Origin: a virus
Lineage: Duplodnaviria; Heunggongvirae; Uroviricota; Caudoviricetes
Direction: 5' to 3' (one strand)
Length of the DNA stretch: 40,341 nucleotides
Virus record (IMG/VR): IMGVR_UViG_2619619135_000001
Coordinates: 1 to 40,341 of that record
Every line of letters begins with the position of its first letter. Within the stretch, counting starts at the first letter, position 1. Below, piece by piece: positions 31,988-32,940 of this stretch. The position numbers and the translations under genes are program-made. Under the pieces are notes generated by a model that was not told the DNA's origin, searched no databases, and worked only from the letters and a program-made list of their open reading frames with translations.

Positions 31988-32940
31988 CCCCTGAATCCTG
32001 CCGGGATCTGGCTGTAGTCCACGTTGTCGTAACTGGCTTTGAAGTACGGGTCTTCGCGTTTTTCGGTGTACGTGCTGACGGACGGCGATAAGCGCAGGGA
32101 AAGCTCATCCCATTTTTCCCGCAACTTCGACGGGCTGAGCACGTTACGGCACCAGAACGGATCGCGGCTGACGCGGCTGTACATCTCGCAGATTTGTTTG
32201 TGAGTACGACCATCCTGCACACACATCAGGCGAATTTCGTTTGCCCAGGCTGTCCAGTTCGGTTCTTTGGGACGAACCACCTCGCCGTCACATTCGGCGG
32301 CATGCTCGTACAGGGCGATGATTTTTTTCCAGAGCCACTGTGCGCAGGTCAAATCATCCTGCGTCCCCCACTGGCGCTTTTTAGGACTGAATACAACCGC
32401 ATCAGGATGGCGAGTTAAAAAATCCTGTTCAGCCGTCTGCGTGTCCGGTTGCGAAGCGTCCGGACGAGAAGTTTTTTTATCTGACGGATCATGTTTTGAT
32501 TTTACTGACGGATCCCCACCAGATTCTGACGGGTGAAAACCCGCTTTTTTGCCAGATTTCGACGCATCAAATTTTGACGGGTCAGATTTTGATGCGTCAG
32601 ATTTTGATGCGTCAGATTTTGACGGGTCAGAATCTGACAGTTGAGAAAGTGCCGCAGCCTGAAGCTTTGCAACGTTAAGCTGATAGACGTTCGACGCATT
32701 GCGGTTACCCTGGCGACGCGCCTTACGCGTTAACCAGCCTTCTGCTTCCAGCCGTGCGATAGCCGTTCTGACGGTACTCATCCCCGCGCCAATCTGACGG
32801 GCAATGGTTTCAATTGATGGCCAGCACACACCTTCGTCATTACTGAAATCAGCCAGGCGGGCCATAATTGCCACGCTGGATAATTTCATACCTGACGCAG
32901 CGCAACCATCCCATACATAGCCGGTTAATTTAGTGCTCAT
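31984..32940 (-). CDS. Replication initiator with N-terminal HTH; contains the iteron array
   Basis: Seen: HTH-like N-terminus, then a low-complexity SKSDASKSDASKSDPSKFDASKSG linker encoded by the DNA repeats, then a C-terminal domain. Known: lambda O carries ori iterons internally. Confidence 0.6.
   Translation of the reverse strand: MSTKLTGYVWDGCAASGMKLSSVAIMARLADFSNDEGVCWPSIETIARQIGAGMSTVRTAIARLEAEGWLTRKARRQGNRNASNVYQLNVAKLQAAALSQLSDSDPSKSDASKSDASKSDPSKFDASKSGKKAGFHPSESGGDPSVKSKHDPSDKKTSRPDASQPDTQTAEQDFLTRHPDAVVFSPKKRQWGTQDDLTCAQWLWKKIIALYEHAAECDGEVVRPKEPNWTAWANEIRLMCVQDGRTHKQICEMYSRVSRDPFWCRNVLSPSKLREKWDELSLRLSPSVSTYTEKREDPYFKASYDNVDYSQIPAGFRG
32470..32645. repeat. Iteron array / candidate replication origin
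   Basis: Seen: at least 7 direct repeats of about 15 bp (consensus GTCAGATTTTGAYGS), including four contiguous units at 32581-32640. Confidence 0.6.

Follow-up and report, generated by a model that had tools for sequence, protein, structure and literature searches.

A probable replication origin within the initiator gene of an SfII/SfIV/CPS-53-type lambdoid prophage

Iterons that lie inside the initiator gene are textbook knowledge for phage lambda, and in the characterised lambdoid systems they are spaced by approximately 20-24 bp. In lambda, they span O codons ~116-144, between both domains of the protein, and are followed by an A-rich stretch. A second relevant group is formed by the iteron plasmids (Rep_3/RepA-type: R6K, pPS10, F, P1), in which winged-helix initiators bind arrays of direct repeats that adjoin an A+T-rich unwinding element (PMC4980987). 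Based on lambda, P22 and L, in-gene iterons are considered the rule for lambdoid initiators, and those of P22 and L gene 18 have been accepted on sequence grounds; in the case of phage L gene 18, six imprecise 11-bp repeats were proposed as the origin from the sequence alone (PMC8022706). The number of iterons in the studied lambdoid origins is four in lambda and six in Stx phages (PMC7466680). Finally, small in-frame ori deletions have been recovered in lambda as replication-dead prophage survivors in which O is still active (PMC6022878).

Here, we describe a comparable locus in a window of 40,341 nucleotides, i.e., the whole stretch of DNA analysed, which corresponds to a Caudoviricetes record of IMG/VR (IMGVR_UViG_2619619135_000001). 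The array of repeats is located in an ORF of the early-right operon of a lambdoid prophage of the SfII/SfIV/CPS-53 type. Judging from the comparisons below, a segment of ~200 bp (32443-32646) inside the initiator gene probably serves this prophage as its replication origin, and it is very likely indeed to be a cis-acting DNA element linked to that initiator. The composing features are the following:

31984-32940, minus strand: replication initiator gene of the SfII/SfIV/CPS-53 (yfdO) type, 318 aa, from the ORF list
32647-32940, minus strand: N-terminal winged-helix DNA-binding domain, aa 1-98 (Pfam HTH_36, E 4e-11)
32548-32640, minus strand: six contiguous 15-bp iterons, each a core TCAAAATCTGAC plus a 3-nt low-information spacer
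32443-32547, minus strand: non-tandem part of the constrained segment, common to several iteron classes
32467-32506, no strand assigned: candidate DNA-unwinding element (72% A+T), the 40 bp of lowest stability in the gene
32457-32466, no strand assigned: perfect palindrome of 10 bp (CGTCCGGACG), read from the sequence at the distal edge of the constrained segment
32092-32442, minus strand: C-terminal domain, aa 167-283, with homology to the C-termini of lambda O and phi80 gp15

In gene order, a CI-like repressor (34187-34879, plus strand) is followed by Cro-like, CII-like, DUF4222 and initiator genes, after which YfdN/PerC-like, LexA-DBD-like, RusA, KilA-N, DUF968 and Q follow in that order. 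The integrase gene is found at 38505-39632. Just upstream of the initiator, a 112-aa ORF (32950-33288, minus strand; PHROG 1170) overlaps in a different frame with a 59-aa ORF (32930-33109, minus strand; DUF4222/PHROG 1343). Annotations differ on this point, with RefSeq records calling the DUF4222 ORF and the mEp460_4F5 record calling the 112-aa ORF. DUF4222 is annotated beside an N-domain of the type present here in the listed E. coli RefSeq records and in several plasmid-borne relatives. Plasmid hits were considered as evidence of autonomous replication and rejected, as they are prophages inside large or misassigned records; one 16-kb circular record is a lambdoid prophage fragment for which no replicon typing is given and is therefore not informative. 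On the other side, the YfdN/PerC-like gene (31493-31987, 164 aa) overlaps the stop codon of the initiator by ATGA. It is followed in the replication/nin region by a 119-aa protein (31167-31526, minus strand) that comprises a LexA DNA-binding domain alone, without an S24 peptidase. Q and the lysis genes are separated by an insertion of two plus-strand genes (26211-28605), one for an NA37/YejK-like nucleoid-associated protein of 384 aa and the other for a protein of 406 aa without a Pfam match. This pair may represent a moron or a defence cassette.

The initiator is covered from end to end by PHROG 391 ('replication initiation O-like'; E 9e-134), and its gene shares 96-97% identity with the 'replication protein' genes of the Shigella phages SfIV and SfII. 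The window carries an intact version of yfdO from E. coli K-12 CPS-53. The K-12 copy itself (hits H60-H63) matches only 31984-32707 of the window, having kept the iterons and the C-domain and lost the first ~78 codons of the N-domain. A match to the gene was found in 3381 of 5426 complete E. coli genomes, in 1581 cases over at least 80% of its length. The overall layout is that of ori-lambda, as found in gene O of lambda and in the Stx phages 933W/P27, with dyad-symmetric iterons in the middle of the initiator gene, between the N-terminal DNA-binding domain and the C-terminal domain (PMC6022878, PMC7466680). The initial annotation placed the iterons in the inter-domain linker, which is no departure from lambda, as the lambda iterons (O codons ~116-144) are inter-domain as well. 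The C-domain is homologous to aa 139-270 of lambda O (36% identity, E 6e-26; BLASTP), an alignment that covers the C-terminal half of the initiator only, and equally to phi80 gp15 (36% identity, E 5e-25). In an AF2 model built from a 37-sequence alignment (mean pLDDT 70), it is helical and confidently predicted (pLDDT 75-93).

Unlike lambda O, the N-domain belongs to Pfam HTH_36. The Pfam scan of the initiator also returned GntR, HTH_29, PaaX, DnaD_N and others, and no match to Phage_rep_O, the family of the lambda O N-terminus; profile searches gave no Rep_3 match, and no solved structure searched by sequence matched the initiator significantly. Foldseek relates the N-domain to winged helices of the MarR/ArsR type. 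The model places helices at aa 43-50 and 54-66 and strands at aa 70-73 and 85-88 with a wing between the strands, so that aa 54-66 form the predicted recognition helix and aa ~74-84 the wing. The N-domain (aa 1-98) is presumed to be the reader of the iterons. Residues 102-162 are predicted to be disordered (pLDDT <50); as in ori-lambda, the residues encoded by the candidate origin would make up a flexible linker.

Further comparisons delineate which parts of this layout are shared. Gene 15 of phi80 has a homologous C-domain and direct repeats at the same relative position in the gene, but its N-domain and the sequence of its repeats are unrelated, and its partner, gene 14, lies immediately downstream. 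P22 and L gene 18 are distant lambdoid initiators that likewise have repeats in the coding region, each with a set of its own; in contrast to the present locus, they belong to another initiator family and are accompanied by a DnaB-type helicase of their own (gp12). In the minus-strand early-right operon (28602-34089), no gene for a helicase or helicase loader (P, gp14, DnaC-like, DnaB-like or gp12) was detected, which sets the module apart from both lambda O-P and phi80 15-14, where such a loader gene follows the initiator. The locus also differs from the iteron plasmids in the lack of a Rep_3 match, in having its iterons inside rather than beside the initiator gene, in its period (15 bp versus ~22 bp) and in the absence of a DnaA box (TTWTNCACA), for which no match occurs anywhere in the window.

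Tandem Repeats Finder reports an array at 32553-32631 with a period of 15, 5.3 copies, 85% matches and a score of 109, which is the sole array scoring >40 across the 40-kb window. A second repeat search placed 5-7 copies in register within 32520-32652. On the coding (minus) strand, unit 1 (32637-32623) is TCAGATTCTGACCCG, units 2 and 3 (32622-32608 and 32607-32593) are both TCAAAATCTGACGCA, unit 4 (32592-32578) is TCAAAATCTGACCCG, unit 5 (32577-32563) is TCAAAATTTGATGCG and unit 6 (32562-32548) is TCGAAATCTGGCAAA. Each unit contains a hyphenated dyad, TCA-N5-TGA. Beyond the array, three dispersed partial copies extend down to ~32480: CCGTCAGAATCTGGT at 32518-32532, and GATCCGTCAG, which is present twice (32505-32514 and 32481-32490). 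When up to two mismatches are allowed, the 12-nt core has 12 matches in the window compared to 4.3 expected, a number reached in none of 100 shuffles; eight of these 12 matches, including all three exact copies, fall within 32551-32638. Together, Tandem Repeats Finder and the core-match scan gave no hint of a further repeat cluster or candidate origin elsewhere in the window. The iterons differ from those of lambda in being contiguous and 15 bp long, as opposed to sites of 18-19 bp that are spaced by 20-24 bp. At the protein level, the array encodes aa 102-130 as a series of SDSDP/SKSDx pentapeptides (SDSDP-SKSDA-SKSDA-SKSDP-SKFDA-SKSG). The array that had been noticed initially is thus real, with the translation given at the time, though six units are contiguous instead of four. 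The interval of 32470-32645 assigned to it was a good approximation of a DNA-constrained segment that is slightly larger (~32443-32646).

The constraint on this segment was assessed at the codon level. Compared pairwise with relatives from Klebsiella, Citrobacter, E. coli Nissle and Yersinia phages, the N-domain (aa identity 81-87%) uses the same codon for an identical amino acid in 41-49% of the cases. For aa 99-160, this proportion rises to 82-94%, despite a lower amino acid identity of 59-82%. We then considered one genome per species, resulting in 80 loci from many Enterobacterales genera with N-domains that are 53-100% identical, and computed the conservation per codon position over 75 distinct sequences. 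Codons 1-97 show the usual coding pattern (0.85/0.91/0.54 for positions 1/2/3), and beyond codon 167 the values are 0.74/0.77/0.54. Codons 99-166, however, have a flat profile (0.82/0.85/0.78), with amino acids that are less conserved. Similarly, the fraction of the top codon for well-conserved degenerate amino acids is 0.53 in the N-domain versus 0.91 in codons 99-166 (Mann-Whitney p = 1e-9). Downstream of the array, third positions are likewise frozen in the 100 bp that carry no tandem repeats: over 32443-32547, third-position conservation is ~0.88 and the top-codon fraction 0.91, against 0.53-0.54 in the N-domain, and within ...GAATCTGGnGGGGATCCGTCAGTA... the codons are TCT for every Ser, GAT for every Asp and GTA for every Val. 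A logo of 312 units from 64 loci returns TCAAAATCTGAC followed by three low-information positions, with the caveat that it is somewhat biased since units were picked by their similarity to the core. The low-information spacer coincides with the variable fifth residue of the pentapeptide (A/P/T/G), and the 12-nt core is conserved. An overlapping ORF was rejected as the source of the constraint, as no alternative frame is open in all loci (best 29 of 73). Because synonymous sites are frozen where the amino acids are less conserved, the segment ~32443-32646 is constrained as DNA and not as peptide. The SKSDx peptide repeats would then be largely a by-product of a DNA requirement, a case of dual coding.

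The co-variation with the N-terminal domain that the initial annotation expected is borne out: the iterons are kept through swaps of the C-domain, replaced when the N-domain is replaced, and changed in concert with it in one group of relatives, though this evidence comprises few independent clade-level events. One and the same pair of N-domain and iterons occurs with at least three types of C-domain, i.e., the lambda-O-like type of the window, a 'conserved phage C-terminal domain' in the majority of the species-level loci, and a type with an HFNxVT motif. Conversely, mEp460_4F5 carries a near-identical C-domain (96.8% over window positions 31984-32480) on an unrelated N-domain. Its initiator lacks the SKSD repeats and has its own repeats with a 23-bp period (five or six copies) instead, as well as three 12-bp repeats at the equivalent place (L085 2995-3167). 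Class C proteins (e.g., P0030) combine another N-domain and DPSNI/DPSTV pentapeptides with the same C-domain, joined at ...SSRPDASQPD. In-gene repeats at the equivalent position also occur in Min27 O (L088 2727-2792; 21-24 bp, GGGGTGGGGCAGGAGCTGCCC) and in phi80 gp15 (X13065 = L173, 4600-4672; at least three units of 21 bp, TTCCCGAAAACGG), and lambda O has its own in-gene repeats with a different N-domain. Crossovers of these module swaps map to 32447-32492, inside the conserved non-iteron block, and the lambda record too annotates recombination points just right of the origin. Within the family, the iterons of six loci (group B), whose N-domains are 62-67% identical, read TCAGAWTCTGAACRT; compared with group A, T:A replaces G:C as the outer base of either half-site. 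Group B and group A differ in six N-domain columns, among them wing position 82 and residue 58, which falls into the predicted recognition helix. Residue 58 is an invariant R in group A (64 of 64 loci), and group B has I or T instead. Altogether, the sequence comparisons show that the segment and the N-terminal winged-helix domain are passed on together as a single module.

The number of units is variable. An identical N-domain is present in 75 of 83 close relatives, with protein lengths of 308, 313, 318, 323 or 328 aa (4-8 units). The 313-aa form is modal (65 of 75), and the initiator of the window has one SKSDA unit above this mode. At the species level, arrays contain 3-9 units with a mode of five (64 loci). 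Free variation of the repeat number without a change in the initiator had been put forward as a sign of a simple coding repeat. Such variation does occur in the literal sense, around a strong mode, but it fails to discriminate, since the proven lambdoid origins are not uniform in this respect either, with four iterons in lambda and six in Stx phages (PMC7466680). Any tandem array of 15-bp units would be expected to slip by whole units. In-frame forms without most of the array exist in sequenced genomes (P0007, P0015 and P0017, and P0029 and P0031 in Salmonella), and they may be the natural equivalent, by analogy, of the ori-deletion survivors of lambda. Considering E. coli and Salmonella together, the tandem iterons are mostly or wholly lost with both domains kept in P0007, P0015, P0017, P0018, P0029 and P0031; P0018 additionally lacks part of the N-domain, and some of these deletion forms occur on many contigs. 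Prophages with such deletions may be naturally origin-dead and domesticated.

In the direction of transcription, the iterons (32640 -> 32548) are followed by the conserved block and then by the 10-bp palindrome. The block (32443-32547) contains the iteron-like CCGTCAGAATCTGG at 32518-32532 and is also conserved in group B and class C relatives. An A-tract follows each of the two GATCCGTCAG repeats, and stability within the gene is lowest at ~32467-32527, whether windows of 30, 40 or 60 bp are taken. A candidate for the A+T-rich element that was anticipated next to an origin lies on the promoter-distal side of the array, the order known from ori-lambda (PMC7466680, PMC6022878), but it is modest: in a nearest-neighbour stability scan, 32467-32506 reaches only the 6th percentile of 40-bp windows in the 40 kb. 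Its A+T-rich stretch is interrupted by the GATCCGTCAG repeats and is weaker than that of lambda. Many relatives have GGTTGCGGCGCAACC in place of the palindrome CGTCCGGACG, and the third positions of codons 159-166 in this region are still frozen. Two Dam sites (GATC at 32487 and 32511) are located in the GATCCGTCAG repeats of the candidate unwinding region, 24 bp apart; an N6-adenine methyltransferase gene is found beside the initiator in many relatives and is absent from the window. Between the tandem iterons and the conserved block, the opposite strand has a terminator-like hairpin, CGGGTGAAAACCCG, followed by a T-run (32530-32543, plus strand). As a promoter or terminator inside the origin, this antisense hairpin is the only candidate, and it was rejected as unconserved in relatives and probably due to chance.

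Which function the segment serves can be weighed from these data. A simple in-frame coding repeat, i.e., a slippage-prone Ser/Lys/Asp linker that provides flexibility or charge at most and has no function as DNA, would agree with a unit length that is a multiple of three, with the whole-unit copy variation behind an identical N-domain (308-328 aa) and with the disorder predicted for the segment. Nevertheless, synonymous positions that are frozen in the repeat region and not in the flanking domains, combined with varying amino acids, are the opposite of what protein-level selection or neutrality leaves behind. The nucleotide conservation follows a 12+3 nt periodicity, the non-repeated 100 bp downstream carries the same signature, and the repeats are always exchanged together with the N-domain. 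We regard this explanation as very improbable, and the codon data may be said to have largely refuted it already. A structured RNA or ssDNA element, in which the quasi-palindromic units would form long hairpins in the mRNA or in unwound DNA and act, for instance, in translational control or primosome assembly, is extremely unlikely. The coding-strand RNA of 32440-32650 does fold at -68 kcal/mol (z = -6.1 versus shuffles), and the replacement of the G...C of group A by the T...A of group B, at positions related by the dyad, would be tolerable in a stem. Strong folding is automatic for an array of dyad-symmetric sites, however, and base identity is conserved in stems and loops rather than pairing alone; moreover, there is no Rfam match and the element segregates with a DNA-binding domain.

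The array could also be a binding site for the initiator or another protein without being an origin, which would then lie elsewhere; it might be, for instance, an autoregulatory operator, a roadblock, a handcuffing array or a centromere-like site. Neither the constraint at the DNA level nor the linkage to the N-domain reveals how the bound complex acts; the A+T-rich element is modest, and a helicase loader gene is missing from the vicinity. On the other hand, the window lacks any other repeat cluster or candidate origin, and the arrangement of iterons, A+T-rich stretch and C-domain matches that of the proven lambda origin codon for codon, with a C-domain that is homologous to lambda O. A partition site is unexpected because the prophage is integrative (integrase at 38505-39632). 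Owing to the lambda-like anatomy and the absence of another candidate origin in the window, a non-origin array is less likely, and we consider it improbable. The proposal that the array is a candidate ori in the initiator gene is thus supported by the constraint on the DNA, the linkage to the N-domain and the lambda-like anatomy.

If the segment acts as an origin, dimers of the N-domain would bind the iterons through the half-sites TCArA and TCTGA. The resulting nucleoprotein complex may destabilise the adjacent A+T-rich, GATC-containing conserved block (32467-32514), upon which the C-domain would bring in the host helicase. Our literature search found no binding, footprint, autonomous-replication or marker-frequency data for the SfII/SfIV/CPS-53 initiator family. 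A more speculative idea, which we deem rather unlikely, is that this family combines a lambda-O-type C-domain, without a phage helicase loader, with an iteron-independent block (32443-32547) that serves as a platform for host factors, and that gain or loss of iterons tunes or silences replication. Such a platform would serve unwinding or helicase loading by means of the paired GATCCGTCAG repeats, the GATC sites and the A-tracts, and the natural gain, loss and deletion of iterons would then be a route to prophage domestication.

The in-gene arrangement as such is ordinary and repeats the lambda paradigm; here, the repeats are very probably an origin that had gone unannotated in a very common prophage family of E. 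coli and Shigella. The genome papers of SfIV and SfI describe a 'replication module' and mention no origin, and the iteron and peptide strings occur in no relevant paper returned by a literature search. Distinctive here is that a probable lambda-type origin goes along with another family of winged-helix domain, with iterons that are contiguous and unusually short, and with the absence of a helicase loader next to it. The analysis provides probable origin coordinates for one of the commonest replication modules of E. coli and Shigella prophages, which is also present in phages SfII and SfIV and in K-12 CPS-53 (yfdO), and dual coding would explain the odd low-complexity SKSDx segment of its initiator. 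Finally, the matched classes of N-domains and iterons, including the change of Arg58 to Ile along with that of G:C to T:A, offer a series for the specificity of winged-helix domains and the modularity of origins.
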